From the IMG/VR virus record IMGVR_UViG_3300033808_000111: a stretch of DNA of 64,000 bases; one strand, given 5' to 3'. Shown piece by piece: positions 3,323-42,286 of the stretch (position 1 is its first letter; every line of letters begins with the position of its first letter). Position numbers and translations under genes: made by a program. The notes under the pieces are model-generated. The model saw nothing but the letters and a program-made list of their open reading frames with translations. It did not search any database and had not been told where the DNA came from. The DNA comes from an uncultured virus (IMG/VR IMGVR_UViG_3300033808_000111) (lineage: Duplodnaviria > Heunggongvirae > Uroviricota > Caudoviricetes).

Positions 3323-3547
3323 ATGGCTCGCCCCGAGCATCTTCATCCGTACGACGTGCCTGCTAGAAGATGCGCGATGACGCCCAAATGCCAAGATCGA
3401 GATGCCATGGAAAAATCTCACGGCTCTCCGTTCGAGTATCGTGCCAAGGTGTACCAGGCCTTCGTGGACGGTTTCATCAACTCCGAGGAGTCGGAAATGA
3501 CGTACCAGCGTTATCTTGTCGACTGGAACAAAGGGCGGTGCTCGTGA
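3323..3547 (+). CDS. MARxEHL-tag protein 1
   Basis: N-terminus MARPEHLHPY shared with 30839, 31550, 41496, 41918. Confidence 0.8.
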   Translation: MARPEHLHPYDVPARRCAMTPKCQDRDAMEKSHGSPFEYRAKVYQAFVDGFINSEESEMTYQRYLVDWNKGRCS

Positions 3548-3741
3548 GTCTTCCTGGCAATCGTTCACCTTGGCACGTGTCGCTCGACACGACTGCCGTC
3601 GATTCCAAGCTCGTGGAGGCAATTCGTACGGCCGTCGGCAAACCTCCGACCGAAGAGGAGATGCGTCGCGCGCTCCTTGGGACCGCAGGTGAATCTTTTG
3701 CTGCTCGTCACGCCGAGCTGCTCACGCGGCTCGCATCATGA
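3544..3741 (+). CDS. hypothetical protein
   Basis: GTGA overlap with previous stop. Confidence 0.5.
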   Translation: MSLPGNRSPWHVSLDTTAVDSKLVEAIRTAVGKPPTEEEMRRALLGTAGESFAARHAELLTRLAS

Positions 3742-3796
3742 AGCGCGAAGCGGTTCATGGTTCTCTTGCTGCGAAGGCGCCGAAGGGGCCGTTCGC

Positions 3797-4435
3797 ATGA
3801 GGCTCGCTCCTGCTGTCCCCTTCGAGCCGTGCGTCGACACCGACGAGATCCTCGATGGTGCGAAGTGCGCCGCGCTCTGGGCCGCCGGCATCAAGGGCGT
3901 GTGGCGCTACCTCGAGGACCTCACGCCCGGCGAGGTCGCCGCGATCTTGGGCTCGGGACTTAAGCTTTTCTTCGTCAATCATTCGCGTCTTCCCGGCTGG
4001 ATTCCTTCTGCGGGCGACGGCGCGATGGACGCGGCGCGCGACGTCCTCAATTTGAAGAAGCTCGGCATCCCGAAGGGCGTTCACGTGGCCTTCGATCTCG
4101 AGGGAGTCGGGGGAGGCATCACGAGCGTGTCTCTAGTCGAAGCACACGTGATCAGCTGGTCGCGCGGAGTCCAGAGTTCCAGCAACCTCGCCGCGCTTTA
4201 CGTGGGCGAGGGCGCGCTCCTCACGTCGCGGCAGCTCTTCGCGCTCCCGCCGACCCTGTATTGGGCCTCATGCAGTCTCATCGTCGATGTCGCGGGCAAC
4301 GCGGCGGTGCCCGAGTGCGACTGGTCGGTCCTCCAGGGGCGGCCGTTCGACGTCATCATCGGTGGCGTCAAGGTCGACTTCGACGTCGTTTTCGCAGACA
4401 ATCGTGGGCGCGTTCCGATCGGTGTGGCAGCGTGA
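3797..4435 (+). CDS. DUF1906 / Rv2525c-like glycoside hydrolase (putative peptidoglycan hydrolase)
   Basis: VD..AALWAAGIKGVWRYL..LTPGEVAAILGSGLKL..G..DA..LGIPKG..VAFDLE..VDFD. Confidence 0.8.
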   Translation: MRLAPAVPFEPCVDTDEILDGAKCAALWAAGIKGVWRYLEDLTPGEVAAILGSGLKLFFVNHSRLPGWIPSAGDGAMDAARDVLNLKKLGIPKGVHVAFDLEGVGGGITSVSLVEAHVISWSRGVQSSSNLAALYVGEGALLTSRQLFALPPTLYWASCSLIVDVAGNAAVPECDWSVLQGRPFDVIIGGVKVDFDVVFADNRGRVPIGVAA

Positions 4436-4473
4436 TCGTGTAGTAGAGCAGAACAAGCAGAAGAGGTGAGGCG

Positions 4474-5166
4474 ATGGCTGAAAGTGTGATCTTTTCGTGC
4501 GACTTGTGCGGCACGCGTTCCGAGGAAGAGATCTCGGACTCGCGTACACAAAGATGCGGGGTCGAGTTCGTCTTTCGCGGCGGAAGGTTCGCGGTGCATG
4601 GAGCAGCGGCGCAAGCTCCGCTGCCGCCAGTCGCCGCTGCGCCGTCCCTGCCGGGCTTTCTGTTTCCGTTTCCAATACCGCCGCAGCAGCAGTCGCAACA
4701 GCAATCGGAATCTCCGCCGTCCGACGAGCTTCGCGTCCACTACGCGCTCTGCGACGGATGCGTGAGGCGCATCGCAGGGCTGTTCGATCTCCGCGTCGAG
4801 CAAGTCGCGGAGGTCGGAGCGCCCGGACCGTGGGAACCGCTCGATCGCGGAGCCTTCAGCCCATTCGCTCCTCAGTCCGGTTCTTCGCCGTTCGGCGCTG
4901 CCGCTCGCGTCTCTTCGCGGCCGCTCTCGGAAGCAGAGGAGATGGAGAGGAGAAGGGCCGAATCATCTCGGGGCGAGATGATCGCCCAATTCCCGAATCG
5001 TCCCGGCGCCGGAATGCCTTTGGATCCCGTGGTGCAGTTCCCCGACGTGCCGAACAACGGTGCTGGCGCTGCGGCCGACGACGCCGGCGCGGCTGCTGCG
5101 GCTGCTGGACAAGGAGCCGAGAAAAATGCCGAGAAAGAGAAGAGCGGTCCCCCGGCCAGCAGTTGA
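4474..5166 (+). CDS. hypothetical protein with split CxxC..CxxC zinc finger and low-complexity tail
   Basis: FSCDLCG and ALCDGC; RBS GAGGTGAGG. Confidence 0.7.
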   Translation: MAESVIFSCDLCGTRSEEEISDSRTQRCGVEFVFRGGRFAVHGAAAQAPLPPVAAAPSLPGFLFPFPIPPQQQSQQQSESPPSDELRVHYALCDGCVRRIAGLFDLRVEQVAEVGAPGPWEPLDRGAFSPFAPQSGSSPFGAAARVSSRPLSEAEEMERRRAESSRGEMIAQFPNRPGAGMPLDPVVQFPDVPNNGAGAAADDAGAAAAAAGQGAEKNAEKEKSGPPASS

Positions 5167-5356
5167 GGGGTTCGTCGCTCCAGTCTCGCCTCCTTATCGT
5201 GCCCAACTGCGAAAGGAAGCCCGTCCCTGGCGAGACAACATCGAGGACGCCATGCAGGACGGCCGCGAGCTTGGGGCTCCGGCGAGGGTCGTGTCATTCG
5301 CCGGTGTTCTTCTCGCGAAGTTTGAGCGTACCGTGAAGGCGGGTTAAGCTCGGGGC

Positions 5357-5602
5357 GTGGATCGAGTCTCGACTCCCGCGGCGCTTCTCCTCTCGGTGCT
5401 CGTCGTCTGCACGACGGCCCTCGTCTACAAGGGCCTCTTGCCGACGCACGCGTTCTTCACGCTCGCGGGCGTCGTGATCGGCTATGCGGTGCCACGCGCG
5501 GCGCAGGCCGCGCTCGGTCGCAGGAGTTCATCGTCGTTTCCACCCGCAGAGGTGCCGACGCGTCCGGACATCAAGATCACCGAAAAGAAAGACGGCAAGT
5601 GA
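5357..5602 (+). CDS. two-TM small membrane protein (holin-like topology)
   Basis: two hydrophobic helices and a charged C-tail. Confidence 0.55.
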   Translation: MDRVSTPAALLLSVLVVCTTALVYKGLLPTHAFFTLAGVVIGYAVPRAAQAALGRRSSSSFPPAEVPTRPDIKITEKKDGK

Positions 5603-5898
5603 GCGGTCTCAATCTGCCGAAGCTCTTTCAGAACCCGCAGTATCTCGCGCAGGTTGGGCACTTTCTCGGCGGAGCGTGGGTCATCGGCTTAACAGTCATC
5701 TTTGCGGGTTTCGCGAGCTTCTGGATCGCCTGGATCGCGCTCGTCGTGCTCGCGGCGATCAAGGAGGGCTGGTACGACATCAAGTACGAGAAGGACAGCT
5801 GGCCTGATTCAGTGATGGACTTCGCGTTCTACCAAGTCGGAGCTGCCGTCGCGTCGGCGGTCTTTTGGCTTGCTCACCACTTGCACCGGATACAGTAG
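5599..5898 (+). CDS. membrane protein
   Basis: three hydrophobic segments; GHF..KE.WYD..DS..D motif. Confidence 0.7.
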   Translation: MSGLNLPKLFQNPQYLAQVGHFLGGAWVIGLTVIFAGFASFWIAWIALVVLAAIKEGWYDIKYEKDSWPDSVMDFAFYQVGAAVASAVFWLAHHLHRIQ

Positions 5899-5909
5899 GG
5901 AGGAAGCTC

Positions 5910-7061
5910 ATGCCGAAGTGTCACCATTATCACCGCATCCACCCGCGCCTTCGCGGTGTTCGTTTGTCCCGCGCCGAGGGGTTCCCCTCGGGGACGCTCT
6001 CGCCCGCGCAGATCTTGGCCGCGTACGGCTTCAAACAAAATCAGTTCGCGGGCGCGGCTCCAGTGAAGATCGGCGTGGGCTCGCTCGGCGGAGCGGTCGT
6101 CCAGTCGGACATCGACAACTCCGTCGCGGCGTGGGGCATGCTCGCGCCGAACATCACGGCGCGCACTGTGGGCGGAGCAGCGCAGGACCCGACGGATGCT
6201 GACAGCTCGGTCGAGAACATGCTCGATCTTCTGCCCACCATCGCGTTCACCTGGTGGTGGCTCACGGGGACTGCCGCTGATATCACCATCACGTTCGGCC
6301 CGAACGCGTCCGGCGGGATGAAGCTCGTGACGGACGACCTCGTCGCGGCAGGCGTCAAGGTTGCGAGCTGGTCGTGGGGCTCGTCGGAGTCTTCGTGGGA
6401 CCCGGCGGAGCAAGATGCGCTCGCGGCTTCCTTCAAGGCGGCCGCGGACGCGGGCGTGACGTTCTGCGCGGCGTCGGGTGACAACTCAGTCGACGACGGC
6501 ACCGGCGCGCCGAGCCCCGATTACCCGGCTGGAGATCCGTGCGTCTGGGGTATCGGAGGCACGAAGCTCCAGATAGCGGCCGACGGCTCGCGCGCGAACG
6601 AGAGTGCGTGGGGCGACGGCGCTCCCGGTGACGAAGGGGGCGGTGGGGGCTTCGACCAGGTCTGGGCGATGCCCGGTTTTCAAGTGGGCATAGTACCCAC
6701 GATCCCGCAAGGAGCCTTCAGAGGCGTTCCTGATACTGCGGCCAACGCTGACCCCAATTCCGGATGGCAGATGTCAGCGAATGGCGGCTGGACGGTCGTC
6801 GGAGGAACGAGTGCAAGCTCGCCGTTCACCGCCGCGCTCATCGCGGTCGCGAAGGGCGTGGCGGCTGTCGCTGGCGGCAACCGAGCGCTCGCGGGTCTCT
6901 TGACGCCCGTCATCTACGCGGCGCGCGAGACCGCCTGCAACGACATCACGACTGGTTCGAACGGTGATCCCGCGACGGTCGGCTGGGACCCTGCGACGGG
7001 TCTTGGTTCTCCCGCGGGCGGCGCTTTCATCGCTGCGCTCACGTCTTCGTCGTCATCGTGA
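5910..7061 (+). CDS. S53 (sedolisin/kumamolisin-type) serine peptidase lacking the usual prodomain
   Basis: ENMLD (Glu/Asp of triad), ASGD (oxyanion Asp), GGTSASSP (Ser), RGVPD, DITTGSNG..WDPATGLGSP; RBS GGGAGG. Confidence 0.92.
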   Translation: MPKCHHYHRIHPRLRGVRLSRAEGFPSGTLSPAQILAAYGFKQNQFAGAAPVKIGVGSLGGAVVQSDIDNSVAAWGMLAPNITARTVGGAAQDPTDADSSVENMLDLLPTIAFTWWWLTGTAADITITFGPNASGGMKLVTDDLVAAGVKVASWSWGSSESSWDPAEQDALAASFKAAADAGVTFCAASGDNSVDDGTGAPSPDYPAGDPCVWGIGGTKLQIAADGSRANESAWGDGAPGDEGGGGGFDQVWAMPGFQVGIVPTIPQGAFRGVPDTAANADPNSGWQMSANGGWTVVGGTSASSPFTAALIAVAKGVAAVAGGNRALAGLLTPVIYAARETACNDITTGSNGDPATVGWDPATGLGSPAGGAFIAALTSSSSS

Positions 7062-7360
7062 GTGCCGCGCGTGAGCGAGCCGAGGTTCTCGCCGATCTTC
7101 TGATGGAGAAGCTCGGCGCAAAAATTGGATCAGGGAGACTTAGTGATCGTTTTCAAGAAGCAGGCGATCTTGTTTGGTTTGCTGCGTACGCTCCTGCTCC
7201 GATTGGTTGGGTTGATCCCGCTTTGGCCATTATCAACGTGAAGAAAGATGGTCAGATTTACATGGAGCGTACTCATCGTTCGGATGATCGAGCTTGGGCA
7301 GAGACAGTCGCCGCGGTCATTTCGGACGCAGGTCTCGGGAAGTGGCTCGAGATGCGCTGA
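7058..7360 (+). CDS. AEVLAD-domain family paralog
   Basis: RERAEVLADLLMEKLG..KDGQI..AGLGKWL. Confidence 0.8.
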   Translation: MSAARERAEVLADLLMEKLGAKIGSGRLSDRFQEAGDLVWFAAYAPAPIGWVDPALAIINVKKDGQIYMERTHRSDDRAWAETVAAVISDAGLGKWLEMR

Positions 7361-7482
7361 CCCATGTGGCCGCCCTGTCGTGCCCCTGGCACAACGTGGG
7401 CCCAGGCCCACATCGCCGCTGGTGCGGCGATAGGGCGTAGCGGACATATGCAAGGGCACCGAGCGAAGGAGCGAAGGTGATG
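7358..7482 (+). repeat. repeat family B, long copy with internal 3-hairpin insert; mini-ORF 7364-7480
   Basis: TGACCCATGTGG..CGTAGCGG.CA.ATGCAAGGGCACCGAG..GAAGGAGCGAAGGTGATG shared with 26991-27055. Confidence 0.85.
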
Positions 7483-8334
7483 CCGCGCGGTGATTTCAAA
7501 GACGCCGAGGAGGTGCTGCGCGAGGTCGGCGCCGAGCTGGGCCTCCGGCTCGATCGCCTCTGCATCTTTCCGCTCGACTCCATCACCGTCCAAGGGGCCG
7601 GCGGCTCGATCGAGTACGTCCCTGGCCTCGTGTACGTGGTCGAGGATCTCAAGGCCACGACGGACGACACGTGGGTCGTTGTTCGAGATGCGCGCCGCGC
7701 CCGCGAGATCGCGGTCGAAACGGCGCAGGTCGACATCTACGACGTGCCCGGCGATTACCCGTTCGATCTTCTTGCGGCACATGTGGATATGGCGCGGCTC
7801 CGTCGCGACGTTTACGAAGAAGCATACTCGTCGAACCTCGACGCGCTTGACGCTCCGCGAAATCGGCCCGAGGTGTTCTGGTCGTACTGGGAAGGAGAGG
7901 GTCTCAAGCTTCCCAAGTTTCCACTCGCTGGGGCAGAGCGGATGTTTCCGACTCAAGAAGAAGTCGAGGGTCTCGCTTCGGTGATGGCACGAAACCAAAC
8001 GCTCGATCCGCTCTCGTATCTTGTCGCGAACCACGGGCGCGCGGCCCAGCAGATGCTCGTGAACTCTCACGCTCTCAATACGAAGGACGCCGCCGAAGAA
8101 GCGGTTCGGCATTTCGGCGTCGAGTACTACCTCACGCGTGGTCGGGGGCATGTTCGCGAGACGCCCTCTGGTTATCAGTACTGGCTCTCCGGGCTGCCAA
8201 AGTTGAAACAAAGGCAGCCGCCTATTTCGAGGAAGTCTCCTCCTTCGGGGCGTCCGCTCGAGTACCACGAGTGGTGCGCGATCTGCGGTGGCTTGCACGG
8301 CACTTCCGAGTGTCCGCGGCAGTGGGAGCGCTGA
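7480..8334 (+). CDS. RETPSG family paralog
   Basis: DF..EEVLREVGAELG..WVVVRD..RETPSGYQYW. Confidence 0.8.
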   Translation: MPRGDFKDAEEVLREVGAELGLRLDRLCIFPLDSITVQGAGGSIEYVPGLVYVVEDLKATTDDTWVVVRDARRAREIAVETAQVDIYDVPGDYPFDLLAAHVDMARLRRDVYEEAYSSNLDALDAPRNRPEVFWSYWEGEGLKLPKFPLAGAERMFPTQEEVEGLASVMARNQTLDPLSYLVANHGRAAQQMLVNSHALNTKDAAEEAVRHFGVEYYLTRGRGHVRETPSGYQYWLSGLPKLKQRQPPISRKSPPSGRPLEYHEWCAICGGLHGTSECPRQWER

Positions 8335-8335
8335 G

Positions 8336-9160
8336 ATGGCTGTCTTTTCTACGGTGCCGTTGATAGAGCGTGACTTCTCGAACTCTGCGTGGGTGAAGCT
8401 CGAGGTCGCGGCTGAGATCGGTATTCGCCCCGAACAGCTCGAGATTCGCCGCATCGCTTTTGTCGAGCCCTCGATGTACTCAGGCACCGTTTACGGGGTA
8501 AGCACTATCAGTGGTTACAGCGACTGGGTCTGGAACGTCGTCCGCGATCACGACGAGCTTCGAAAGCTCGGCCTCGGATGGGCCACGTATTTGTTCCGGA
8601 AGGAGCCTCGGGATGCCATCGGGCGCCTTTCGAAGTTGCGCGCGTTCAACTCGAGCGCTTTCAGGGAGGCTTTCGTCAGGTTCGCCGTCGATCAAGACGC
8701 CCTGCGCGACGGTCTCGAAGGTTTTCTCACTCAAGAATCGGCGTGGCTCGCGCGCGGCCTCGCACGTTCGGATCCCGAGGAGTTCTGGAACGTATGGGAC
8801 CGCGTCGCAGAGCAAGCGACGTGGTTTCCGCGCGGCATGGAGGCGTCGTTTCGCGCACGCCGAACCCCGAATGCCGACGAGCGCGATGCGCTCGCCGATG
8901 CCCTCGCGGAGGACGCGATGCTTGACCCTGTCGGCTATCTAAAGGGGACCGCGCCGCGCCGAGAGCTTGCGGCGCGCCGGCAGCGGCAAGAGATTCCTTT
9001 CAGCGACGCGATGAGCGAGGTCGCGAGGTTCGGGGGCATCGATGCGGGCGGCGCCGCGGCGCTCGTGGTCGAGCGCCTCGGGCCACTCGCCTTGATGTCC
9101 GTTGGAGAGAAGCATGCGCGCGAGACTCCGAGCGGCTACGTCTATTGGCAGGAGACCTGA
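8336..9160 (+). CDS. RETPSG family paralog
   Basis: RDFSNSAWVKLEVAAEIGIRP..RETPSGYVYW. Confidence 0.85.
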   Translation: MAVFSTVPLIERDFSNSAWVKLEVAAEIGIRPEQLEIRRIAFVEPSMYSGTVYGVSTISGYSDWVWNVVRDHDELRKLGLGWATYLFRKEPRDAIGRLSKLRAFNSSAFREAFVRFAVDQDALRDGLEGFLTQESAWLARGLARSDPEEFWNVWDRVAEQATWFPRGMEASFRARRTPNADERDALADALAEDAMLDPVGYLKGTAPRRELAARRQRQEIPFSDAMSEVARFGGIDAGGAAALVVERLGPLALMSVGEKHARETPSGYVYWQET

Positions 9161-9163
9161 GGA

Positions 9164-9538: not shown

Positions 9539-9543
9539 CGCGA

Positions 9544-10217
9544 GTGGTCTGTCACCGCGATGCTTCAGACTGGGTGAGACCTGAGTGCGTGCTCGAGGAG
9601 GTCGGCGCCGAGCTTGGGATCCATCGGGACGATCTCTCCATTCGGCGCGTGCCCGAGGCCAGCAAGACGATCGCTCAAGAAGTCTACGAGGTGTCGGCTC
9701 TGGGCGGTCAGTGGTGGGTTGTTCTCCGCGACAGGCAGGCCGAGCTGGAAGGCACTGTGCCGAGCTGGAAGGTGCCCTTGTTTTTTGTCGGGAGCGCTGG
9801 AAGGATGCGTACCCCGATCACCTCTTCAAGCGGCTCGCGAAGACGGGCGCCTTCAAGGACAAGAGGTTTATTAGCGAGTTCATGGCCGCGATCGGATCAG
9901 CGCAGCTCCGGTACGCACTCGGATACGCTGAGAACGTCGACGGGCGGCGGTTGCCTCTTGATTGGAACGAAGAGCCTCTCAAGTACTTGCCCGAGATCAA
10001 GCGTTTCTTGAGCGAGGGGCGTCGCGCTTTGACGTACGCGGACCTCGCATGGGAGGCCGTCGGCGGTCGCGCGGCCCGCAGCGAGGTGCTCGATTGGGAT
10101 CGGATCGCGGAGCTGACGGTCGAGCGCCTCGGGCCTGCGGACATCTTCTCTGCCGGTCGCCAGCAGCTCTCGCGCGACACGCCGTCGGGGTTCGTCTATT
10201 TCTTCTGGGAGCCGTGA
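9544..10217 (+). pseudogene. RETPSG family paralog frameshifted by a 20-bp insertion/duplication
   Basis: N-half (VLEEVGAELG) in the frame of 9544, C-half (RDTPSGFVYF) in the frame of 9585; 14-bp direct repeat at 9739-9752 and 9759-9772. Confidence 0.8.
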
Positions 10218-10852
10218 TGGTACGAGACTTCTCGGACCGCGAGTGGGTGAAGCTCGAGATCGCGGCCGAGCTTGGGATTCGGCCAGACGTGCTCGAGATC
10301 ACGCCGAGCTTCGTCGCCGCTGCCAGAGGAGGCGAGATCCGTCGCTTTTACATCGTCGACGTTCGCCCCCGTGGCAGCCGCGCCTTTTCCATTTACGTGG
10401 TGGCCAACGCGTCGGAAGCTCGTGGTATCGCCAAGGACGCCGCTATGGACGATGTCCTGGGCTCACCGAGTCACTTCAGTCCGAAGTTCTGGCAGAAGCT
10501 TGCGCCAGGCAGCCCGAGCGCTGTGACCTTCAAAGAGGCGATGCGCCGCGAGCTTCAGCATCAGAACTACACGCGCACGCCTGCGCATCTCGTGGCGCGC
10601 GGGGAAGTTGCGGATTGGGTCGAGCGGGAGACCAAGCGACAGCTCTCGTCCCTCTCTGACGCTGTCGAGTGGATCGAGAGCGTGGGCGGCGCGCGCCGCT
10701 GGCGGACGGTGCTCGAGGATGCGGGCATCGGCTGGAACACGGCGGCCGATGCTGCGCTCGAGCAGAATGGCGTCGAGCACTACCTTCCGCGTATCATCGG
10801 GAGCGTGCGCGAGACTCCGTCGGGTTTCGCGTACTGGGAAGTCGAGCGATGA
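10217..10852 (+). CDS. RETPSG family paralog
   Basis: MVRDFSDREWVKLEIAAELGIRP..RETPSGFAYW; TGATG coupling. Confidence 0.85.
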   Translation: MVRDFSDREWVKLEIAAELGIRPDVLEITPSFVAAARGGEIRRFYIVDVRPRGSRAFSIYVVANASEARGIAKDAAMDDVLGSPSHFSPKFWQKLAPGSPSAVTFKEAMRRELQHQNYTRTPAHLVARGEVADWVERETKRQLSSLSDAVEWIESVGGARRWRTVLEDAGIGWNTAADAALEQNGVEHYLPRIIGSVRETPSGFAYWEVER

Positions 10853-13639: not shown

Positions 13640-14599
13640 ATGGCGAGTGTTGTAGAGGAGACGAGGGACGCTGAGCAGTGGTGCCACGTCATCGCTGACG
13701 CGCTCATGGATGAGCACTTCGAAGTAATCTCGCGTGGGATGCGAATGGGGCACTGCTTTCTTCAGGTCGAGGAGCGTGAGACGCCTCGCGGTCGCGCGAC
13801 GCTCATCGTCGACGACGACGGTTTCATCGAGATCACCGAGGTGGGCGGCGGGGGTGCCGAGAAGGTCAGGGCTGCCCTCGAGCGGCGCGGGCTCGGTGAG
13901 AACCTCATGGCCGGCGAGCCTCGCGGGTTCGACTTCGAAGAAGAGGAAGCCGTTCTGCTCGAGATGTCGAAGGAACTGGAGGTTTCGATGGACGATCTCG
14001 AGATCGCCCACTCGAGCCTCGAGCGCATGAGCGGCGGCACGCTTTGGGAGGTCACGCTCGGCAACCAGGAGTGGGAAGTCGCGCGCGATTACGACCAGGC
14101 ACGCGACTTGGCCATCGCTATGGTCGAGCAGGACCTCGAGACCGATCCCGAGATCTTCAGCCGCGATTTCCTCGCGAGGCACATCGACGAAGATCGTCTG
14201 CGTCGCGAGCTTTATTCCGACGTCCTCAACATGAGGGAAGAGGACCTCAGGGACGAAGCAGAACGTCGTCCTGACGATTTCTGGCGCCACTACGAACGCG
14301 CGGGCTTCGATGCTCCCGAAGAAGACGAAGAAGGCAACCGGCGCGACCCCGAAGACAGCGAGATCGAGGAGCTTGCCGAGCACGAGACAGACGAAGAGCT
14401 GCGCGACCCGATGCAATACCTCGAGAACATCTACGGCCGAGAAGATGCCGTGGCGCAGGCGCTCGAGATCGCTCCCATCAACACGCGTGAAGCTGCCGAA
14501 GACGTCGTGCGAGGCGACGGGCCCGGGCAACGTCTCTCGGGTTACGACGGTGAGCTTCACGAGACGCCGGTGGGGTGGCAGTACTGGAGAACGAATTGA
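13640..14599 (+). CDS. fusion of AEVLAD domain and acidic RETPSG-family domain
   Basis: WCHVIADALMDEHF..DDGFI..RRGLGENL then DFEEEEAVLLEMSKEL..HETPVGWQYW. Confidence 0.85.
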   Translation: MASVVEETRDAEQWCHVIADALMDEHFEVISRGMRMGHCFLQVEERETPRGRATLIVDDDGFIEITEVGGGGAEKVRAALERRGLGENLMAGEPRGFDFEEEEAVLLEMSKELEVSMDDLEIAHSSLERMSGGTLWEVTLGNQEWEVARDYDQARDLAIAMVEQDLETDPEIFSRDFLARHIDEDRLRRELYSDVLNMREEDLRDEAERRPDDFWRHYERAGFDAPEEDEEGNRRDPEDSEIEELAEHETDEELRDPMQYLENIYGREDAVAQALEIAPINTREAAEDVVRGDGPGQRLSGYDGELHETPVGWQYWRTN

Positions 14600-14970
14600 C
14601 CATCGAGGCTACTGTCATCAAAGTCCTGGACTTTCGCACTTATGAGCGCGTCACGATGGGCATTCTGCGCGTGTCGGAGAGCGGCGTGATCGCGGACCTC
14701 GTTCGGGCGGAGAACCCAGACCCGCGGATAACGGCGCGCGACTGGATGGCTGCGCGCGCCCTCATGCACCGGCTGCAAGACGCGGTGATGTCCCATGAGA
14801 GCGCGCAGCGCGCTCAATGTTCCTTCGGCGGAGCGGCTCCGGCGCAAAGTGCCGGGGCTGGGCCCCACGGAGGGAATCCGACGAGGGCGTCAGCCGCGGA
14901 TGGCCGAGCAGGTTTCAGCCTCAAGGCGTTCAACGGCTTGGGAGCCAACGAGGTTCGGCTCGATGTCTGA
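14596..14970 (+). CDS. hypothetical protein containing an in-frame family C repeat
   Basis: TTGA overlap; SAGAGPHGGNPTRA insert. Confidence 0.5.
   Translation: MTIEATVIKVLDFRTYERVTMGILRVSESGVIADLVRAENPDPRITARDWMAARALMHRLQDAVMSHESAQRAQCSFGGAAPAQSAGAGPHGGNPTRASAADGRAGFSLKAFNGLGANEVRLDV
14842..14889 (+). repeat. repeat family C (GCTGGGCCCCACGGAGGGAATCCGACGAGGGCG)
   Basis: also at 28768-28817 and tandem at 45642-45744. Confidence 0.85.
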
Positions 14971-17493: not shown

Positions 17494-17528
17494 TGACGAT
17501 GACAATGATGCCAAAGGACGCAGTCCGT

Positions 17529-22234: not shown

Positions 22235-22521
22235 AAGTGAGCTTCAGCAATCCTGGAAAGGTGCTCGGGATCCTTCGGACGCGCGAGGCGTTGCGGCATT
22301 CGGCTCAGACCTCGGACCTCTCGCGAGAGATCGCGACGCTCAAGCAGGAGACTTCGGATCTGGTGGGCGAGATCCGCAAGCTCAAAGTCGCGAATGCCGC
22401 GATGAAAGAGCTTCTCTCCGAAGTGGTGCAGCAGGCAGAGATCACCACGCGCCCGGTCTCTCCCGCGTGGCTCGAGCGGGCGAGGGCAATCTTGTCGAGT
22501 TCGAAGAGGAAAAAGTCATGA
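22231..22521 (+). CDS. coiled-coil hypothetical protein
   Basis: RBS GAGGAGG; ATGA overlap. Confidence 0.6.
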   Translation: MKVSFSNPGKVLGILRTREALRHSAQTSDLSREIATLKQETSDLVGEIRKLKVANAAMKELLSEVVQQAEITTRPVSPAWLERARAILSSSKRKKS

Positions 22522-22613
22522 ATCCGAGACCGAGCCGGAGGCGAGGGCGAACGACGAGAACGACCGAGCAGGGTCCTATCGAGCAAAGCGAGATGGGAGA
22601 GGGAAGGTCATGA
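22515..22613 (+). repeat. repeat family A, 92-bp form; mini-ORF 22518-22613
   Basis: GTCATGA-ATCCGAG..GGGAAGGTCATGA. Confidence 0.9.
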
Positions 22614-22858: not shown

Positions 22859-23190
22859 TGGGCCGCCGAATTGTTGCTCGGACCATCCGTCACATGGCGC
22901 GGTCCTCGAAGCTGAAGACTGACGCCGAGCGTCTCGGGGCGTACGTCGCCGGCTTCTTCGAGCGCCGCAAAAAGTGGCCCACAGTTCGTCAGTGCGCGCG
23001 CGCACTTCGCTGGACGCAGGCGCGCGTCGAAGAAGCGACCGGAGACGAGTCGTACGGCGGCAGGCTCTTCCTCTCGTCGCTCCTCTCGATGGTCGATTCG
23101 CCGCTCGGCGATCACTTCGTCGAGCACCTCGAGCTGATGAACCCGTGGAAGCAGCGCCAGCTCCGAAGAAACGGACCGGAGGGGTCATGA
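22858..23190 (+). CDS. putative HTH protein
   Basis: WPTVRQCARALRWTQARVEE. Confidence 0.55.
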   Translation: MGRRIVARTIRHMARSSKLKTDAERLGAYVAGFFERRKKWPTVRQCARALRWTQARVEEATGDESYGGRLFLSSLLSMVDSPLGDHFVEHLELMNPWKQRQLRRNGPEGS

Positions 23191-23258
23191 ATCCGAGGTC
23201 GGGCTGGAAGCCCGAGCGAACGACGAGAACGACCGAGCGAAGCGAGGGAAGGTCATGA
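23184..23258 (+). repeat. repeat family A, 68-bp form; mini-ORF 23187-23258
   Basis: near-identical to 36978-37052. Confidence 0.9.
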
Positions 23259-25919: not shown

Positions 25920-26464
25920 TGTTCCTCGACTTCGACGGCGTGCTCAACTCCTCGCGCTTCGCGCGCGAGAACCCCACGACGGGCACCTGGGGGCTCGACC
26001 CGAGCGCCGTCCGGATCGTGAGCGAGATCTGCGAGCGCGGCGCTGCTGAGGTCGTGATCTCGTCGTCATGGCGGATCGGTCGATCGCTTGGGCAGCTCAA
26101 GGACGCCCTGCTCGAGGTCGGGTTCCGCGGCACGGTGCGAGGCGCGACGCCGCTTCCCGAAGAGATGTGCAACGAGCAGCTCGCGACGCTCTTCGAGGAG
26201 AAGGGCTTCCACGCGAGCCCTCAAGAGATCAGGAAGATCGTCGTCGGCTACACGCGTGGTCGCGAGATCGATGCGTGGCTCAAGGCATGTCCGTGGGACA
26301 TCGAGTCGTTCGTCATCCTCGACGACGACAGCGACACTGAGCCTCATGTCGGTAGGCACGTCAAGACTACCCTCGCTGAGGGCATTCTCTCCGAGCACGT
26401 GGAAGAAGCGCTTCGGATTCTCGAGACGCCGTTGAAAGGAGACTGGTTGGGAGATGAGCCGTAA
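25910..26464 (+). CDS. HAD-superfamily domain protein (HAD_SAK_2-like)
   Basis: VFLDFDGVLNS, VISSSWR, RG.EI..WL, FVILDD. Confidence 0.9.
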   Translation: MRVVFLDFDGVLNSSRFARENPTTGTWGLDPSAVRIVSEICERGAAEVVISSSWRIGRSLGQLKDALLEVGFRGTVRGATPLPEEMCNEQLATLFEEKGFHASPQEIRKIVVGYTRGREIDAWLKACPWDIESFVILDDDSDTEPHVGRHVKTTLAEGILSEHVEEALRILETPLKGDWLGDEP

Positions 26465-26993
26465 TCTCTGCAAGCGCGACTGCTACTTCTGCGGCGGCGA
26501 GGTCAAGCTCACAGAGCCCGAGAGGCTCATCACGGAGGAAGACTGCGGGTCGATCTACTACCGATCCGACCGCTACGCTTACAGGGGTGCCGTCGTGGCG
26601 TTCGCCGAGTGCTCGGACTGCTGCGCCAAGTACCTCGCGTGGATCGATTTTTCGGCTTGTCCCGGGTACGGCGAGCACCCGTATTTTAATCGGAGCGAAC
26701 CGTTCTTCGACCTGTCGTTCCGCTCGACGTTCAACGATGAGCCCGGCGAGGCGGACCTGCCTGAGCACGAGATCGAGGTCGTGAGAGCCCGAAAGCCGTG
26801 GCCAGTGTGCGGTGCGTGCGGGAAGAAGATTTATCACTGTTACGGCTGCCAGTGTCCACGGTGCGAGGAGCACGAGGACTGCAAGGCACACCCCGAGATC
26901 GGTCGGACATGCGCGGAAAAGAAACACGAAGAAAGGATTACGTCTGCCGTGCGCGCCGCGGAGAGCGCCGCGGTGACGGAGGAGCGAAGGTGA
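26454..26993 (+). CDS. Cys-rich protein with CxxHxDC motif
   Basis: CEEHEDCKAHPEIGRTC. Confidence 0.75.
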   Translation: MSRNLCKRDCYFCGGEVKLTEPERLITEEDCGSIYYRSDRYAYRGAVVAFAECSDCCAKYLAWIDFSACPGYGEHPYFNRSEPFFDLSFRSTFNDEPGEADLPEHEIEVVRARKPWPVCGACGKKIYHCYGCQCPRCEEHEDCKAHPEIGRTCAEKKHEERITSAVRAAESAAVTEERR

Positions 26994-27315: not shown

Positions 27316-27540
27316 ATGTACGACGACTACGACGACCTGCTGGAAGAGCGCTACGCCGACATGATCGTCCGGTGCAGCAAGCACGCGGACTGCCGCGAGC
27401 ACCCGGCGCTGGGGCTCGAGTGCGCGAAGCGTTCAGGACAGACGGTTGATCGTCTCGCGGATCGCGCTTGTCCCTCGACCGACTTCGGCGACTACGACGA
27501 CTGGCGCAAGGCTTTTCCAGAGCTGCCGTGGGATGAATGA
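27316..27540 (+). CDS. small protein with CxxHxDC motif
   Basis: CSKHADCREHPALGLEC. Confidence 0.7.
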   Translation: MYDDYDDLLEERYADMIVRCSKHADCREHPALGLECAKRSGQTVDRLADRACPSTDFGDYDDWRKAFPELPWDE

Positions 27541-30838: not shown

Positions 30839-31237
30839 GTGGCTAGGCCCGAGCACCTCCATCCCTACGGTCCGCGGCCCTCGAACTACGGTGAGATGCT
30901 CGCGAGGTTCAAGGAGCGGCAGAACCGTGACATCTCGAGGTGGACCCGCGACAATACCGACGCCGACATCGAGGACATGGCGCGCGGCGGCGACGGAGGT
31001 CCCGTGGGGGGCGGCGAGACCATCCGCTCGCGGTTCTACGGTCCGGACTGGTCGGATCGGGACTTCAAGGACCTGCTCGGCGAGCTTGCTGAGAACGAAG
31101 TGCGCCTGCGGATCGAAAATCTCGTACGCGAGACCGAGGAGCAGATCCGCTACATCGGCCACCAGGGGCGCCCGGCCGGGATCACGGAAGCCGAGGTGCG
31201 CGCGGCGGTCGTGGCAGCGCTGGGACGTGCACGATGA
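30839..31237 (+). CDS. MARxEHL-tag protein 2
   Basis: MARPEHLHPY; RBS GAGG. Confidence 0.85.
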   Translation: MARPEHLHPYGPRPSNYGEMLARFKERQNRDISRWTRDNTDADIEDMARGGDGGPVGGGETIRSRFYGPDWSDRDFKDLLGELAENEVRLRIENLVRETEEQIRYIGHQGRPAGITEAEVRAAVVAALGRAR

Positions 31238-31539
31238 GCGCGAGCGTGAAGCTTCGCGACAAGGCTTTCGAGAGGGCTCAAGTCGTGGCCGATGTCCTCG
31301 AGGAGGCAGGTTTCTACATCGTCACGCGGCCGTTGAGGCAAACGCGTGGTGCGCACACAAATGAGGTGTGGACTCGTGCGGCGTCTTCGTCTGCGATGCT
31401 GGATGAGGCGCTCATCGTGGTCAACGACGACGGGCGCATCGGTGTGTTTTCGGATTACTATCCGAGTCTCGAGATTCGTACGCGTGCAGCTTTCAAGAAA
31501 GCTGGCCTCGGCGAGTGGTTCGACGAGATGATGCAATGA
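31234..31539 (+). CDS. AEVLAD-domain family paralog
   Basis: ERAQVVADVLEEAGF..DDGRI..KKAGLGEWF. Confidence 0.85.
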   Translation: MSASVKLRDKAFERAQVVADVLEEAGFYIVTRPLRQTRGAHTNEVWTRAASSSAMLDEALIVVNDDGRIGVFSDYYPSLEIRTRAAFKKAGLGEWFDEMMQ

Positions 31540-31549: not shown

Positions 31550-31969
31550 ATGGCCCGCCGAGAGCACCTCCATCCTTACGAGCGAGGCGTGCTCGTCGTC
31601 ACGAGCATCGAGTGGATGAACACCGAGGACAGCTACGAGCGCGGCGAGATCGGCCAGACGTTCACGGTCCTCGCCGAGGAGAACGTCGGCCGCTACCGGA
31701 CGCCCGCGGAGATGCGCCAGGACCTTATCGGAAGATTCGGTTTGCCAGAGGACCGGGACGCGTGGCTCGCGTTCGACGACGGTCGGATCGATGTTCAGTT
31801 TCAGGTGGACGTGGACAACAATCCGCCGACTGCGCGCGAGCGCGAGCGCTGGATGCGCGGAGAGACGCAGCTCTGGGCCGCGTACGTCACCATCCATTTC
31901 GTTGAAGCCTTCGAGGCTACGCCCTCTCGGGAGCGGATCGCCGAGATGTTCGGGATCGCGGAGGAGTGA
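31550..31969 (+). CDS. MARxEHL-tag protein 3
   Basis: MARREHLHPY; RBS GAGG. Confidence 0.85.
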   Translation: MARREHLHPYERGVLVVTSIEWMNTEDSYERGEIGQTFTVLAEENVGRYRTPAEMRQDLIGRFGLPEDRDAWLAFDDGRIDVQFQVDVDNNPPTARERERWMRGETQLWAAYVTIHFVEAFEATPSRERIAEMFGIAEE

Positions 31970-36652: not shown

Positions 36653-36984
36653 TGGGCGCAGCGGAGGAGAAAGCTTCGGTCCTCGGTGACGCTTTCCAAG
36701 AGCGCGGGTTTCAGACCCACGTGACGGAGCGTTACATCATCATGGGGCTGGGAGCGTCGAGCGAGACGGTCCCGACCGAAGATGCGCTCCTTTGGCTGAG
36801 AATGTCTGGCGAAGATCAAGCGATCGTGCTCGTCGTGAAGCCGAACGGGTCGCTCTCGTTCGTCCAAGGCTTTGAGCAGCAAAAGGAGCTGGTGACGAAG
36901 TTTCTCGTTGAGATGGGTCTTGCCAAGTACCTCGGTCCGCACGATCGAACCACTTGGATTCATCGTGCGATGAGAAGGTCATGA
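36652..36984 (+). CDS. AEVLAD-domain family paralog
   Basis: EKASVLGDAFQERGF..PNGSL..EMGLAKYL. Confidence 0.85.
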   Translation: MGAAEEKASVLGDAFQERGFQTHVTERYIIMGLGASSETVPTEDALLWLRMSGEDQAIVLVVKPNGSLSFVQGFEQQKELVTKFLVEMGLAKYLGPHDRTTWIHRAMRRS

Positions 36985-37144
36985 ATCCGAGGTCGGGCTG
37001 GAAGCCCGAGCGAACGACGAGACCGATCGAGCGAAGCGAGGGAAGGTCATGAATCCGAGGTCTGGCTGGAAGCCCGAGCGAACGACGAGACCGACCGAGC
37101 AGGGTCCTATCGAGCAAAGCGAGATGGGAGAGGGAAGGTCATGA
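36978..37144 (+). repeat. repeat family A tandem (68-bp + 92-bp); mini-ORFs 36981-37052 and 37049-37144
   Basis: three GTCATGA junctions. Confidence 0.92.
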
Positions 37145-37497: not shown

Positions 37498-37503
37498 CTT
37501 TGA

Positions 37504-37716: not shown

Positions 37717-37718
37717 AT

Positions 37719-38913: not shown

Positions 38914-38934
38914 CGTGAGCTAATTTGTAGCTCA
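38910..38934 (+). promoter_or_regulatory. inverted repeat TGAGCTA-N5-TAGCTCA (putative operator) over -10-like TAATTT
   Basis: immediately upstream of RHH gene. Confidence 0.55.
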
Positions 38935-39137
38935 TGGCTCGTCGCGCTGCTGAAAAGCTCACCGAGGTCATCTCGATGCGCCTCTCGGAGCGGGACAAAA
39001 AGCTGCTCGACTCCGCGGCCGCGTCGGCGCCGTTCATCCCTCGCTTGACGCTCGCACGCTTCGCCATGCGCATCGGACTCGAGAAACTCAAGAAGAAGCG
39101 TTCGATGCTCAAGGCCATCGCGGGATTGGAGAGCTAG
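38934..39137 (+). CDS. ribbon-helix-helix DNA-binding protein
   Basis: EVISMRLSERDKKLLD..TLARFAMRIGL. Confidence 0.7.
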   Translation: MARRAAEKLTEVISMRLSERDKKLLDSAAASAPFIPRLTLARFAMRIGLEKLKKKRSMLKAIAGLES

Positions 39138-39138
39138 C

Positions 39139-39366
39139 GTGATCACCTGGTGGCAGCTCTGCGCGTTCATGTACATGGCCGGCTTTTCGGTCACGTGCCT
39201 GCGCCTCTACCACGACATCAACGTCGATCGCCAGACATGGAGCAAGTGGTTCTCCGGTCGCCACGAGCCTGGTGTGGTCGTGGTCGTCGTCATGCTGGCG
39301 TGGTGGTTGATGCTCTTCTGGGAGATTCGTGATTGGCTCTCAGGAGAAGGCGACGAGGAAGACTGA
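39139..39366 (+). CDS. small membrane protein
   Basis: two hydrophobic segments. Confidence 0.55.
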   Translation: MITWWQLCAFMYMAGFSVTCLRLYHDINVDRQTWSKWFSGRHEPGVVVVVVMLAWWLMLFWEIRDWLSGEGDEED

Positions 39367-39393
39367 ATCAGAAAAAGAAAGGCATGGTGAGGC

Positions 39394-40095
39394 TTGCCGT
39401 TCGACAACTCCCGATCTCCGGACTTGAAGCACTTTGGAACCGTCACGCTCTCGCCGCGCGGAGGCGGCGAGATGGTGATCAGGGCCGAGGGCGCGTGCAG
39501 CCACCAGGACTGTTTCTTTTCTCCCGGCATGATGGCCGCGTGCATCAAGAAAGATGAAGCCCCCGCGCGCCTCCTCCCGACCCACTTCTCGTTCGCGACG
39601 TCGCCCGAGATCTTCGGCGACCAAAGTGATGAGGCTAGAAGGACTCGGGGGAATCTTGTTAGCCAGTTTCCGACGGATGCCAATCCGCAACGTTGGCGAG
39701 AACAGAATGAACAGGAGATGCGCGCGCTCGGTGCGCACCGGGATTCGTTCGCGTCGCCGGCGGACGTCTTCGTGCTCGACATCGAGGTCGACGGCGTCTC
39801 GATGTGTCAGGCGGCGCCCGCGCGGGCGCGGGCCGAAGGCGTCGAGATGCCGGATTACGAGCCGATGCACCTGTTCGATCTCCAGTGGATGCCTCTCGGA
39901 CAGGCTTACCGGCTGCCGGCCTTCTACTCGCTGCGCCTCCTGCTCGAGAACCGCTCGAAGAAGAAGGCGATCATCATGGGCACGGTCACGTGCAACGTCT
40001 GGACCCGGTGGTGGCTCGACGACGGCCCGGGGTTCCAGATGATGCGCTGGGACGTCGAGCAGCTGAAGAAGGACGTTGGTGAAAGCGTTGGGTAG
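39394..40095 (+). CDS. hypothetical protein
   Basis: fills gene chain; start uncertain. Confidence 0.6.
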   Translation: MPFDNSRSPDLKHFGTVTLSPRGGGEMVIRAEGACSHQDCFFSPGMMAACIKKDEAPARLLPTHFSFATSPEIFGDQSDEARRTRGNLVSQFPTDANPQRWREQNEQEMRALGAHRDSFASPADVFVLDIEVDGVSMCQAAPARARAEGVEMPDYEPMHLFDLQWMPLGQAYRLPAFYSLRLLLENRSKKKAIIMGTVTCNVWTRWWLDDGPGFQMMRWDVEQLKKDVGESVG

Positions 40096-40576
40096 GAGAG
40101 CTGCGAAGCGAGAAGTCATCACCAAAGAGACGTGTCTCGAGTGCGGCGCGTGCTGCGTCAGCCTGACCGAGGCCGACGCTTACTGCGACGTCACGCCCGA
40201 GGACGAGAAGAAGCTCGGCAAAAAGTTCGTCCGGCTCAACGTCCTCCATCCCCGACCATTCGACATGGCCTACTCGATGATTCACGGGGTAAAGATGAGT
40301 GCGCACGGCGCCATCAAGACGTCGTGGAAGGTCGCGAAGTCTGGGCCCTTCAAGGGCATCTCCGCTTGCCAGTGCGTGGCGCTTACCGGGGCTCTCTTCG
40401 ATAAGGTGCGCTGCTCCGTCTACGAGAAGCGCCCCCGCGTGTGCCGCGAGGCGGTCGTGCCCGGAGATCGCGCATGCCGAGAGATCAGGACACTGATGAA
40501 GAAAGCGATCATCGATGCGATCGAGGCTTCGGCGTCAGCAGATCACTCTCGCGTCCAGTCCCGAGGAAACTCGTAG
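40076..40576 (+). CDS. YkgJ family CxxCxxCC cysteine-cluster protein
   Basis: CLECGACC..CVAL.G....CSVYEKRP.VCR. Confidence 0.88.
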   Translation: MVKALGRRAAKREVITKETCLECGACCVSLTEADAYCDVTPEDEKKLGKKFVRLNVLHPRPFDMAYSMIHGVKMSAHGAIKTSWKVAKSGPFKGISACQCVALTGALFDKVRCSVYEKRPRVCREAVVPGDRACREIRTLMKKAIIDAIEASASADHSRVQSRGNS

Positions 40577-41001
40577 AAGGGATGAAGGTCGAGGTACTGC
40601 GCGACAGCCTTGAGCGCTTTGTATCCGTCATCGTAGACCTGATCAGAGGTGCCTTGTGCTTCCACGGCCGCCGCGATCCCGATCGGCACGTCGCGCGCGA
40701 CGAAGAGCGCGTGGGGCTCGCGAGCGTCGCGCAGGGCTCGCCAGCCCGAGTACCTCGGGTTGTCGGCGCTCGGCATGCTCGACGCGGCGTATAGGGCACC
40801 GTTTCGTTTCCAGTCCGGCCACCTGGTCTCTCCCGTGCCGTAGACTGCAACGACGAGCCTCGGGATGCGTTCGCGAGACCCTAGAAACGCCGGATAGACG
40901 GCGAGTTCGCCGAGGCTTGCGTCGCGTAGGAGACCCTCGGTGACGTGGGGTTTTATTTCGTCGTTCACGAGGACGTGCGTGCCTTCTTTGGTCTTTTGCA
41001 C
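40543..41001 (-). CDS. hypothetical protein
   Basis: protein-like composition; RBS GAGAGG on minus strand. Confidence 0.55.
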   Translation of the reverse strand: MQKTKEGTHVLVNDEIKPHVTEGLLRDASLGELAVYPAFLGSRERIPRLVVAVYGTGETRWPDWKRNGALYAASSMPSADNPRYSGWRALRDAREPHALFVARDVPIGIAAAVEAQGTSDQVYDDGYKALKAVAQYLDLHPFYEFPRDWTRE

Positions 41002-41495
41002 GGCGATCTGGGAGATGAACCTCTCGTCGCTCCTTCTTACCGTGATGATGTAGGCCGACGGGCGCGACTCTCGAGCACCTCTTCGAACCTGGTACTCGGC
41101 GACGCCGGAGACCTTGTATGCCCGTCCATGATCGCGTCAGCGATCACTTGTCCAAGCTCCACGGGGTCGATTTCCCTCTTCGTCACCTTCGTCACAGCGA
41201 GATGATACCAGTTGGTGCCTGCGACTTGCAGCTTGGCAGCGGGTGCGCGAAGATCCCTCTCATGATAGGCCGGAAGACTCGAACGACTACGATTCACTGC
41301 CCCTCAACCGGCTCGGCGCACGCGCTTCGCCACGAGCTGGACAAGGTGGGCGCGCTCTCTCGACGCCGGGGACGCGCGGTTTTCACGACCGCGCGGAGCA
41401 AAACGATTGAGCGCGCAAAGAGGCGCGCGCGTGGAAGTCAGCACCGAGGCGGTGTTTTGTCGAGGCGAGCATCGTACAGGATGACGCGGTGAGGC

Positions 41496-41918
41496 GTGGC
41501 CCGCCGTGAACACCTTCTGCCTTACCGGGGGCTCCTCGACAGCTACGTGGGCCGCGCCCGCGAGCTTTACCACTCAGAAGGCATCATCGAGGTCGATCCG
41601 CCGAAAAGTTCTCTGGCCGACTTGTCCAGCCAGGTCTCTTTCAGCGAAGGCGGAGCGTGGGTCGAGGCGTGGTTCTGGATGTCGTATCCGCAAGAAGTGG
41701 ACGACGACATGAACGACGAAGAGATCGTTGGCAACGCGCAAGATTCCGCGCGCGGTTACCGGTCTTATTTCGGTTCTGAAATCGAAATCGACCCGGGCGC
41801 CGTCGTGAGCCGGCACGACGTCGAGAGCATCGAGAACATGGGCGGCGTCTACGTGCAGGCGTGGGTCTGGGTTCCGGAGGATGAGGTGGAGGTTGTGAGG
41901 GTGGAGGTTGTGAGGTAA
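41496..41918 (+). CDS. MARxEHL-tag protein 4 (acidic; duplicated E[IV]DP..GG.[WY]V.AW.W domain)
   Basis: MARREHLLPY. Confidence 0.85.
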   Translation: MARREHLLPYRGLLDSYVGRARELYHSEGIIEVDPPKSSLADLSSQVSFSEGGAWVEAWFWMSYPQEVDDDMNDEEIVGNAQDSARGYRSYFGSEIEIDPGAVVSRHDVESIENMGGVYVQAWVWVPEDEVEVVRVEVVR

Positions 41919-42286
41919 TGGCTCGCCGCGAACACCTTCAGCCGTATTTGCGGAAACGTCCGGACCGCATCGAGTTCGACGACAATGAGATCGAAGCAGC
42001 TTCTCATTGGTACGGGGGGATGGATCTGCTCTACGCGGTCGCTTCTACTGGGAGCCTGAGTCGAGGGACCAATCGTCCTCGAAACGAGGACGGCAGTGCG
42101 ATGACCGACGAAGAATGGATGAACGATTTGGCCGCGGAACTCGTGGTGCTCGCTACCCAGTGCGCGCAAGATGCTCGCGTCCAAAGGCGTGAGACCCGCA
42201 GCACGCGCGATCGCCAGGAGCTTCTCGACGACGAGCAGGGGCTCTACAGCATCGCGTACAAAGCGCGGCGGTACTTGGAGCAGTGA
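41918..42286 (+). CDS. MARxEHL-tag protein 5
   Basis: MARREHLQPY; TAATG coupling. Confidence 0.85.
   Translation: MARREHLQPYLRKRPDRIEFDDNEIEAASHWYGGMDLLYAVASTGSLSRGTNRPRNEDGSAMTDEEWMNDLAAELVVLATQCAQDARVQRRETRSTRDRQELLDDEQGLYSIAYKARRYLEQ

Follow-up and report, generated by a model that had tools for sequence, protein, structure and literature searches.

Encapsulin cargo-loading peptides and microcompartment encapsulation peptides are short terminal sequences by which cargo of unrelated kinds is directed into a protein shell. In bacteriophage T4, the genes whose products bear the capsid targeting sequence (CTS) are scattered outside the head-gene cluster. Excerpts from the T4 literature describe the CTS as a portable peptide of approximately 10 residues that IPI-III and Alt, internal proteins with diverse mature parts, have in common at the extreme N-terminus (PMC3012670; PMC9026906). 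Residues 1–10 of IPIII are sufficient for head targeting, the CTS has been proposed as a means for phages to load varied proteins, and the T4 cleavage logo is L/I-X-E, with the cut after Glu (PMC9026906, in the excerpted text). In Staphylococcus phage 80alpha, the motif at the N-terminus of ribosomal protein L27 recurs on the capsid and scaffold proteins, which the host protease Prp cleaves, and other phages bear an L27-type motif on non-homologous proteins, as reported in the excerpted sections of PMC5744158. In the current study, we analyze a 64-kb stretch of DNA from an uncultured virus of the Caudoviricetes (IMG/VR record IMGVR_UViG_3300033808_000111; the whole stretch is hereafter called the window), in which five gene products begin with the decapeptide MAR[PR]EHL[HLQ]PY (hereafter, the tag). 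Diverse phage proteins with an N-terminal targeting tag are already known from T4; the decapeptide, its carriers, and the phage lineage are new.

The original prediction, made from the letters of the window, listed five positions at which otherwise dissimilar proteins share this N-terminus, argued from synonymous codon differences that the peptide rather than the DNA is conserved, and saw no similarity after residue ~10. It suggested a targeting, packaging, or cleavage signal analogous to the T4 CTS, named true starts downstream of the motif, or downstream regions that are distant homologs of one fold, as findings that would overturn it, and proposed a pattern search through the genome and public databases, together with a check on whether homologs of the downstream domains lack the tag.

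Five gene starts encode one conserved decapeptide

A six-frame regular-expression search of the window returned five matches to MAR[PR]EHL[HLQ]PY, all on the plus strand, at positions 3323, 30839, 31550, 41496, and 41918; positions and peptides were identical to those originally claimed. A degenerate DNA pattern that tolerated up to one mismatch found the same five sites and nothing more in the window, and 100 dinucleotide-preserving shuffles yielded a mean of 0.00 and a maximum of 0 motif matches. When a 10-column motif hidden Markov model (HMM) was run over 1430 six-frame pieces, the five tags scored 19.1–23.5 bits, with the runners-up, both in non-gene frames, at 10.7 and 7.6 bits. When 2308 candidate start sites in the window were compared in an unbiased way, the tag set again came out as one cluster, and the sole other 5-member N-terminal cluster was made up of internal starts inside a paralogous family. 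Eight of the ten residues (M1, A2, R3, E5, H6, L7, P9, and Y10) are invariant in the alignment of the five copies. No comparable C-terminal tag was found in the window, the shared C-terminal peptides there being only the products of DNA repeats.

The first copy (MARPEHLHPY, 3323..3352) occupies the first 10 codons of open reading frame (ORF) 3323-3547, which encodes 74 residues with an isoelectric point (pI) of 6.8 and whose GC content at third codon positions (GC3), 0.65, is the weakest coding signal among the five tagged ORFs. The second (MARPEHLHPY with a GTG start, 30839..30868) likewise provides the first 10 codons of ORF 30839-31237 (132 residues, pI 5.7, GC3 0.83), for which one gene caller placed the start at an internal ATG and another at the tag. 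The third (MARREHLHPY, 31550..31579) forms the first 10 codons of ORF 31550-31969 (139 residues, pI 4.7, GC3 0.84), the fourth (MARREHLLPY with a GTG start, 41496..41525) those of ORF 41496-41918 (140 residues, pI 4.3), and the fifth (MARREHLQPY, 41918..41947) those of ORF 41918-42286 (122 residues, pI 5.1, GC3 0.70), whose ATG overlaps the TAA stop of ORF 41496-41918. Every copy of the tag coincides with the first ATG, GTG, or TTG after a stop codon in its ORF (5/5), and a Shine-Dalgarno sequence of the GGAG/GAGG type lies at a normal spacing of 5–10 nucleotides upstream of the start in three of the five. The starts of the 41496 and 41918 ORFs lie 3 nucleotides past, or overlap, the stop of the upstream ORF. 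With tags at first start codons, three of them behind a Shine-Dalgarno sequence and two coupled to a stop, the true starts do not lie downstream of the motif.

ORF 3323-3547 sits just upstream of a lysis-like block comprising an Rv2525c-like glycoside hydrolase (3677-4435), two small hydrophobic ORFs, and a sedolisin. A reading of this ORF through its stop codon into the in-frame hydrolase ORF was rejected, as the intervening translation does not look protein-like. The segment from the stop of the tagged ORF to the first start codon of the hydrolase ORF (3548-3676) has a raised GC3 of 0.70, yet encodes an implausible peptide, and another frame (3370-3741) gives a short protein-like reading ('...DSKLVEAIRTAVGKPPTEEEMRRALLG...'); the gene boundaries here are uncertain.

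The pattern of substitution among the five copies was then compared by codon position. Over codons 2–10, all nine third positions vary, as against 3 of the 18 first and second positions (Fisher p = 4.7e-5), and any two tags agree at only 2–5 of 9 third positions. For Arg3, four copies use CGC and the 30839 copy uses AGG, a switch that changes two codon positions synonymously and is therefore unexpected if the RNA or DNA sequence alone were selected. Nucleotide identity falls from 20–25 of 30 in codons 1–10 to 5–12 of 30 in codons 11–20. The DNA strings quoted in the original prediction are correct, and the contrast between wobble and other positions bears out the conclusion drawn from them. 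The tag is translated and is maintained by purifying selection on its amino-acid sequence. The period-three variation, the few shared third positions, and the Arg3 switch also show that the copies are old and have been kept by selection on the amino acids, with no recent copy-and-paste.

Beyond the window, the degenerate DNA pattern matched 11 loci in IMG/VR, none of which (0/11) was at a start codon, and the strict DNA pattern gave 0 matches in JGI metagenomes. A relaxed pattern matched 57 metagenomic loci, with one match each, many of them inside conserved enzymes and none a multi-copy case; in GTDB genomes there were 4 single matches on separate contigs, with no convincing gene start and no phage-like or multi-copy setting. 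A profile of the five N-termini was searched against a protein database of 5.8 billion clusters, covering proteins of 71–2000 residues, and all five hits, among 388 candidates, were the window's own proteins, a blank that the method itself rates as weak evidence. The pattern search across the window and public databases therefore yielded five gene starts inside the window and none outside it.

The bodies behind the tag

The tagged proteins are small (74–140 residues), hydrophilic (grand average of hydropathicity of -0.39 to -0.98), and mostly acidic (pI 4.3–6.8), and their genes occupy three loci within a non-structural region. Their alignment contains no conserved columns past residue 10, where conservation falls abruptly. 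Residues 11–30 are polar or charged in four of the five copies, and the hydrophobic core behind a charged N-region that marks a Sec or Tat signal peptide was not seen in this alignment. BLASTP comparison of the five tagless bodies with 536 window ORFs of at least 50 residues produced no match between tagged proteins (best non-self E = 0.32). Pfam, PHROGs, and NCBIfam searches assigned none of the five to a family, save for a match of the 41496 protein to phrog_6739 (E = 6.7e-5). In a word-indexed protein database, the 30839 and 31550 proteins found only themselves, among 57 and 28 candidates, respectively, and a poor ESM Atlas model of the 31550 protein (predicted local distance difference test score (pLDDT) of 0.56) gave no usable hit by features, with template modeling (TM) scores of at most 0.50.

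The 41496 protein is the sole body with outside relatives. A phmmer search against 1.84 billion representatives returned 14 proteins at E <= 0.001, namely the 41496 protein itself, three long repetitive proteins that were dropped on inspection (P0008, P0010, and P0013), and ten small homologs (P0009, P0011, P0012, and P0014-P0020) with a common domain of approximately 45 residues, whose signature is ...YH.EG.IEVD...GGAYVQAWVWV. The 41496 protein carries two tandem copies of this domain, at about residues 15–64 and 83–133, and the tag lies outside the domain, which starts at approximately residue 15. None of the ten outside homologs bears the tag (0/10), and in several of them the domain begins 5–17 residues from the N-terminus, behind unrelated leaders; for this body, the homologs of the downstream domain do lack the tag. 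Among these ten proteins, which come from unrelated sources, the uncharacterized phrog_6739-like domain occurs as a single copy, as a tandem, or in fusion with other parts.

A domain HMM was built from nine of the ten homologs (one was missed by the anchor pattern), with the 41496 query left out. It matches the 41496 protein with scores of 59.7 and 37.0 bits, against a maximum of 6.5 bits for anything else in the window, and alignment of the 41496 family profile with the other four tagged proteins by hhalign gave probabilities of 0.2, 0.8, 0.2, and 0.1%. An AlphaFold2 (AF2) model of the 41496 protein, computed from an 11-sequence alignment (pLDDT 68), has residues 1–6 below a pLDDT of 50 and a helix at residues 5–25 that continues into the first helix of the domain; Foldseek found no solved structural relative of this model in the PDB at E <= 0.001. 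Two resemblances seen by eye in the 31550 and 41918 proteins, one to a diverged 41496 domain and the other to the 'DDG.IEV' hairpin of a 27-member family of the window (described below), were rejected after HMMs and hhalign gave no support. The five bodies are not detectably related in sequence: alignment, BLASTP, domain HMM, and hhalign all lack a shared signal, and the claim of no similarity after residue ~10 stands. Because the 41496 domain recurs elsewhere without the tag and the bodies are without similarity, the tag looks like a portable add-on.

Possible roles of the tag and rival explanations

We put at roughly even chances the reading that the tag is a portable, protein-level N-terminal label with a common reader, that is, a shared address or docking signal for head loading or hub docking. 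One common partner would read the tag, and exchangeable accessory proteins would thereby be brought to the same place or machine. By analogy with the T4 CTS, head loading is the most likely specific mechanism, if an unproven one: the tag would bind the assembling scaffold or core, the cargo would be enclosed and possibly trimmed, and it would then enter the next host together with the ejected DNA. Almost as probable is a general motif for docking onto a hub protein of the host or the phage. More tentatively, the decapeptide might be a signal unrelated to any known one and belong to an undescribed phage protein-addressing system, in a lineage with no cultured relatives, that would route an exchangeable set of small acidic effectors to the virion interior or to a host hub without the T4-type protease logo.

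Several observations weigh against the address-label reading. The 64-kb window contains no head, scaffold, or prohead-protease genes that would link the tag to virion assembly, a point that bears equally on the targeting, packaging, or cleavage signal suggested in the original prediction. The T4-type L/I-X-E logo is absent from residues 1–12 in all five copies, where the sole Glu (E5) follows R-[PR]; another protease specificity may apply. The tagged proteins are mostly acidic, whereas T4 internal proteins are described as basic in the excerpted text of PMC9026906. All five copies come from one metagenomic contig, with no other gene start bearing the motif in IMG/VR, JGI metagenomes, GTDB, or the protein database, and the tagged neighbors 30839/31550 and 41496/41918 would also fit local duplication.

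If the tag is an address label, it marks a functional class, from sequence alone, among proteins that are otherwise without annotation. It would also offer a ten-residue handle for loading or docking foreign proteins in a phage lineage without cultured members, in the way that the T4 CTS has been used according to the excerpted account (PMC9026906), and it would extend the tag-bearing phages to one from peat soil that shows no detectable relation to T4. Short terminal address labels might then prove to be a general, overlooked way in which large phages organize their accessory proteomes. If the tag is instead a relic of a gene family, the locus is an ordinary case of fast-evolving paralogs.

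Such a relic would have arisen from one ancestor by local duplication, with bodies diverged past recognition and an N-terminus constrained as a functional site, an origin that we judge unlikely. It would account for the two neighboring pairs, and it accords with the heavy gene-family expansion in this phage, where one N-terminal domain family alone has at least 27 copies in the window. The synonymous sites of the tag are saturated, which implies time enough for the bodies to diverge, and the unrelatedness of the four bodies other than 41496 comes from sequence and profile comparison, which leaves room for a common fold. The 41496 domain family, on the other hand, is found elsewhere without the tag, and the other four bodies fail to match it by either the domain HMM or hhalign (0.1–0.8%). 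The absence of BLASTP similarity among the bodies, their spread in length from 74 to 140 residues, and the drop in conservation after residue 10 likewise speak against common descent.

The tag could also act on stability or timing, as an N-terminal degron or protease-recognition peptide that confers a common lifetime, or as a nascent-peptide translation element. Its strictly N-terminal position on small accessory-type proteins of a non-structural region would suit such a role, and selection at the peptide level suits any protein-level reader, a protease adaptor included. We nonetheless give this explanation only a small chance: no protease adaptor was recognizable in the window by Pfam, PHROGs, or NCBIfam, and ten invariant-to-near-invariant residues probably exceed what translation-efficiency effects usually need. 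The tag is not known to resemble bacterial N-terminal recognition motifs.

A third alternative involves the sedolisin/kumamolisin-like (S53) peptidase of the window (5910..7061, plus strand), which matches pro-kumamolisin (PDB 1t1e) at E = 5.4e-42; no other protease was seen in the window. The E-x-x-x-D, GD, and GGTS motifs of this enzyme, which we take to be the catalytic residues, align with those of kumamolisin and look intact. Three IMG/VR homologs (L045, L046, and L047) have a conserved N-terminus in common with it, which supports the ATG at 5910. The protein has no long prodomain, and its His-rich N-terminus (MPK.HHYHRIHPRLRG) is kept in these three homologs, on other GC-rich phage contigs of 61–128 kb. 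It comes after a hydrolase and two small hydrophobic ORFs and may be part of a lysis block; an acid-active protease fits the peat habitat.

This enzyme is a weak candidate for the cutter of the tag. The tag would then be a propeptide removed by the phage's own sedolisin, with the invariant Pro9-Tyr10 as the P2-P1 site, which we hold to be improbable. Native kumamolisin prefers Pro at P2. In the excerpted portion of PMC11908114, a kumamolisin-derived enzyme cuts on the C-terminal side of P-Q dipeptides, which places Pro at P2; Pro9-Tyr10 could therefore be a sedolisin site. The presence of an apparently intact S53 peptidase in the window points the same way, as does the I-H-P-R in the sedolisin's own conserved N-terminus, which resembles L-H-P-Y. 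Against cleavage by this enzyme, the three phage contigs that encode the sedolisin (67–73% identity), and that share 7–14 window ORFs, lack the tag (0/3). Sedolisins are secreted enzymes. They are active in acid (at pH 2–4 for kumamolisin-As; PMC7400306, excerpted text), and these properties make a role outside the cell, in acid peat, more plausible than processing in the cytoplasm.

That the tag mimics an N-terminal processing motif of some host protein is, in our estimate, slightly less probable again. Such mimicry has its precedent in 80alpha, where L27 and the capsid and scaffold proteins carry one motif according to the excerpts of PMC5744158; in the present case, the N-terminal profile search recovered no protein other than the five of the window among its 388 candidates, a blank that counts as weak evidence. 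Least probable of all is a nucleic-acid element (a translational-repressor operator, a recombination boundary, or a start-associated sequence) that overlaps the first codons by chance: 18 of the 30 nucleotides are invariant and the location is always a translation start, but variation is strictly period-three with all nine wobble positions variable and a CGC/AGG Arg switch, RNAalifold on the five copies finds no conserved structure (5 weak pairs, 0 covarying, -1.9 kcal/mol), and upstream of the five tags nothing is conserved beyond the ribosome-binding site.

Genome setting and comparison with known systems

The window has a GC content of 62.7% and is densely filled with small ORFs, mostly on the plus strand. 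In the protein database, window proteins are assigned to two contigs, one of 121,733 bp, of which approximately 58 kb lies beyond the window, and one of 76,620 bp. The only sequencing run with matching DNA comes from a peat metagenome, which may be the source, and no RNA run is listed. Pfam searches of 103 window ORFs identified an SNF2-type helicase C-terminus, a Ku-like protein, DHFR, a NUDIX hydrolase, a HAD_SAK_2 domain protein, a metallophosphoesterase, the Rv2525c-like glycoside hydrolase, a subtilase-like peptidase, and a transposase of the insertion sequence (IS)-type DDE class; PHROGs searches of 99 window ORFs agree on phage affinities. Neither search recognized head, tail, terminase, scaffold, or prohead-protease genes in the 64-kb window. 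Rfam and tRNA scans of the window found none, and a promoter and terminator scan of 29.5–43.5 kb was uninformative.

Isolated phages gave no megablast match to 13 kb of the window, and the protein-level relatives of single window genes are distant (25–36% identity). An IMG/VR contig of 411,618 bp and 44% GC (G001), found through a 451-residue phrog_6077 protein, lacks the motif, and three others (G002-G004; 116,275 bp, 127.5 kb, and 61 kb) share with the window the sedolisin and, in all, only 7–14 window ORFs. None of these four contigs has either the motif or an analogous N-terminal tag. Shared N-termini of other sequence do occur on two of them. In G002, seven ORFs of 54–677 residues begin with MSHIVGRGRY or MSRIIGRGRY (starts at 112845 on the plus strand and at 83946, 82844, 80024, 76080, 75906, and 108755 on the minus strand), and Gly-X-Y (collagen-like) repeats occur in the same regions; the ORFs probably encode paralogous fiber proteins with a common N-terminal anchor, which is of another kind than the decapeptide tag. 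In G001, five neighboring ORFs of 65–352 residues begin with MNPR[KT]AFEQ[AV] (starts at 4374, 3312, 2989, 2680, and 2483, minus strand).

Paralogous families fill much of the window. At least 27 paralogs share an N-terminal domain of approximately 65 residues, in which a helix ('..ERA.VLADAL.ELGF') is followed by strands ending in 'V..DG.IEV', and their C-terminal parts are very unequal in length (ORFs of ~85–320 residues), so that the family takes up a large share of the 64 kb. The motif starts on the plus strand are at 7085, 11154, 11464, 12993, 13688, 31282, 35547, 36149, 36679, 37180, 42543, 43651, 43961, 44574, 44981, 45808, 46098, 47871, 48598, 49134, 51033, 51305, 51578, 51947, 52279, and 52866, with one more at 50489 on the minus strand. 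The domain has no Pfam, PDB, or PHROG match. The tagged proteins are not members of this family, one member of which (31234-31539) lies between the tagged 30839 and 31550 genes. A second, direct-repeat family (D6) is marked by the internal peptide 'KLE[VI]AAE[LI]G' and is encoded at 7477-8334, 8288-9160, 9962-10852, 13640-14599 (C-terminal part), and 46757-47518; all of its members match one G002 locus (about 63,650-64,390) at 21–53% identity. Three small ORFs (26454-26993, 27316-27540, and 53114-53641) share the Cys/His-rich sequence 'RC..H.DC..HP..G' (26859-26906, 27370-27417, and 53561-53608) and are probably a family of small metal-binding paralogs.

Three families of 51–102-nucleotide repeats, some of them tandem, occur in or near intergenic spaces: the first at 22512-22613, 23183-23258, 36977-37144, and 48429-48459, the second at 17517, 28208, 29451, 52691, and 52742, and the third at 14836, 28762, 45638, and 45689. 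One type of the first family begins with a stop codon, continues with a GC-rich inverted repeat, and ends in a ribosome-binding site and an ATG, and the 25 nucleotides 5' of the ATGs at 22610 and 37141 are identical. To judge from this arrangement, the repeats look like reusable terminator/start cassettes. The DDE transposase (55202-56581, minus strand), which matches DDE_Tnp_1 and, weakly, a SWIM zinc finger, is embedded among the phage genes on the opposite strand; its nearest plasmid relatives, of the IS5 family, are only 26–27% identical and hence give no clue to the host.

Compared with the described systems, the tag resembles encapsulin and microcompartment signals in being a short terminal peptide on unrelated cargo. 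Those signals have other sequences and are often C-terminal, and the Pfam and PHROGs scans of the window showed neither an encapsulin nor a shell protein. With the Prp/L27 system of 80alpha, the tag has in common that one short N-terminal motif, read in 80alpha by a single protease, is borne by non-homologous phage proteins. The 80alpha motif, however, imitates a ribosomal protein of the host and is borne by structural proteins, whereas the carriers here are small and accessory in type, and the N-terminal profile search found no cellular protein with the motif. The T4 CTS differs in its L/I-X-E logo, for which the tag has no counterpart, in the mostly acidic nature of the carriers described here, and in the gp21-type protease, scaffold, and head genes, of which none was seen in the window. 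It is nevertheless like the tag in its basic design, a peptide of approximately 10 residues at the N-terminus of proteins with unrelated bodies, present here in five copies with 8 of 10 residues invariant.

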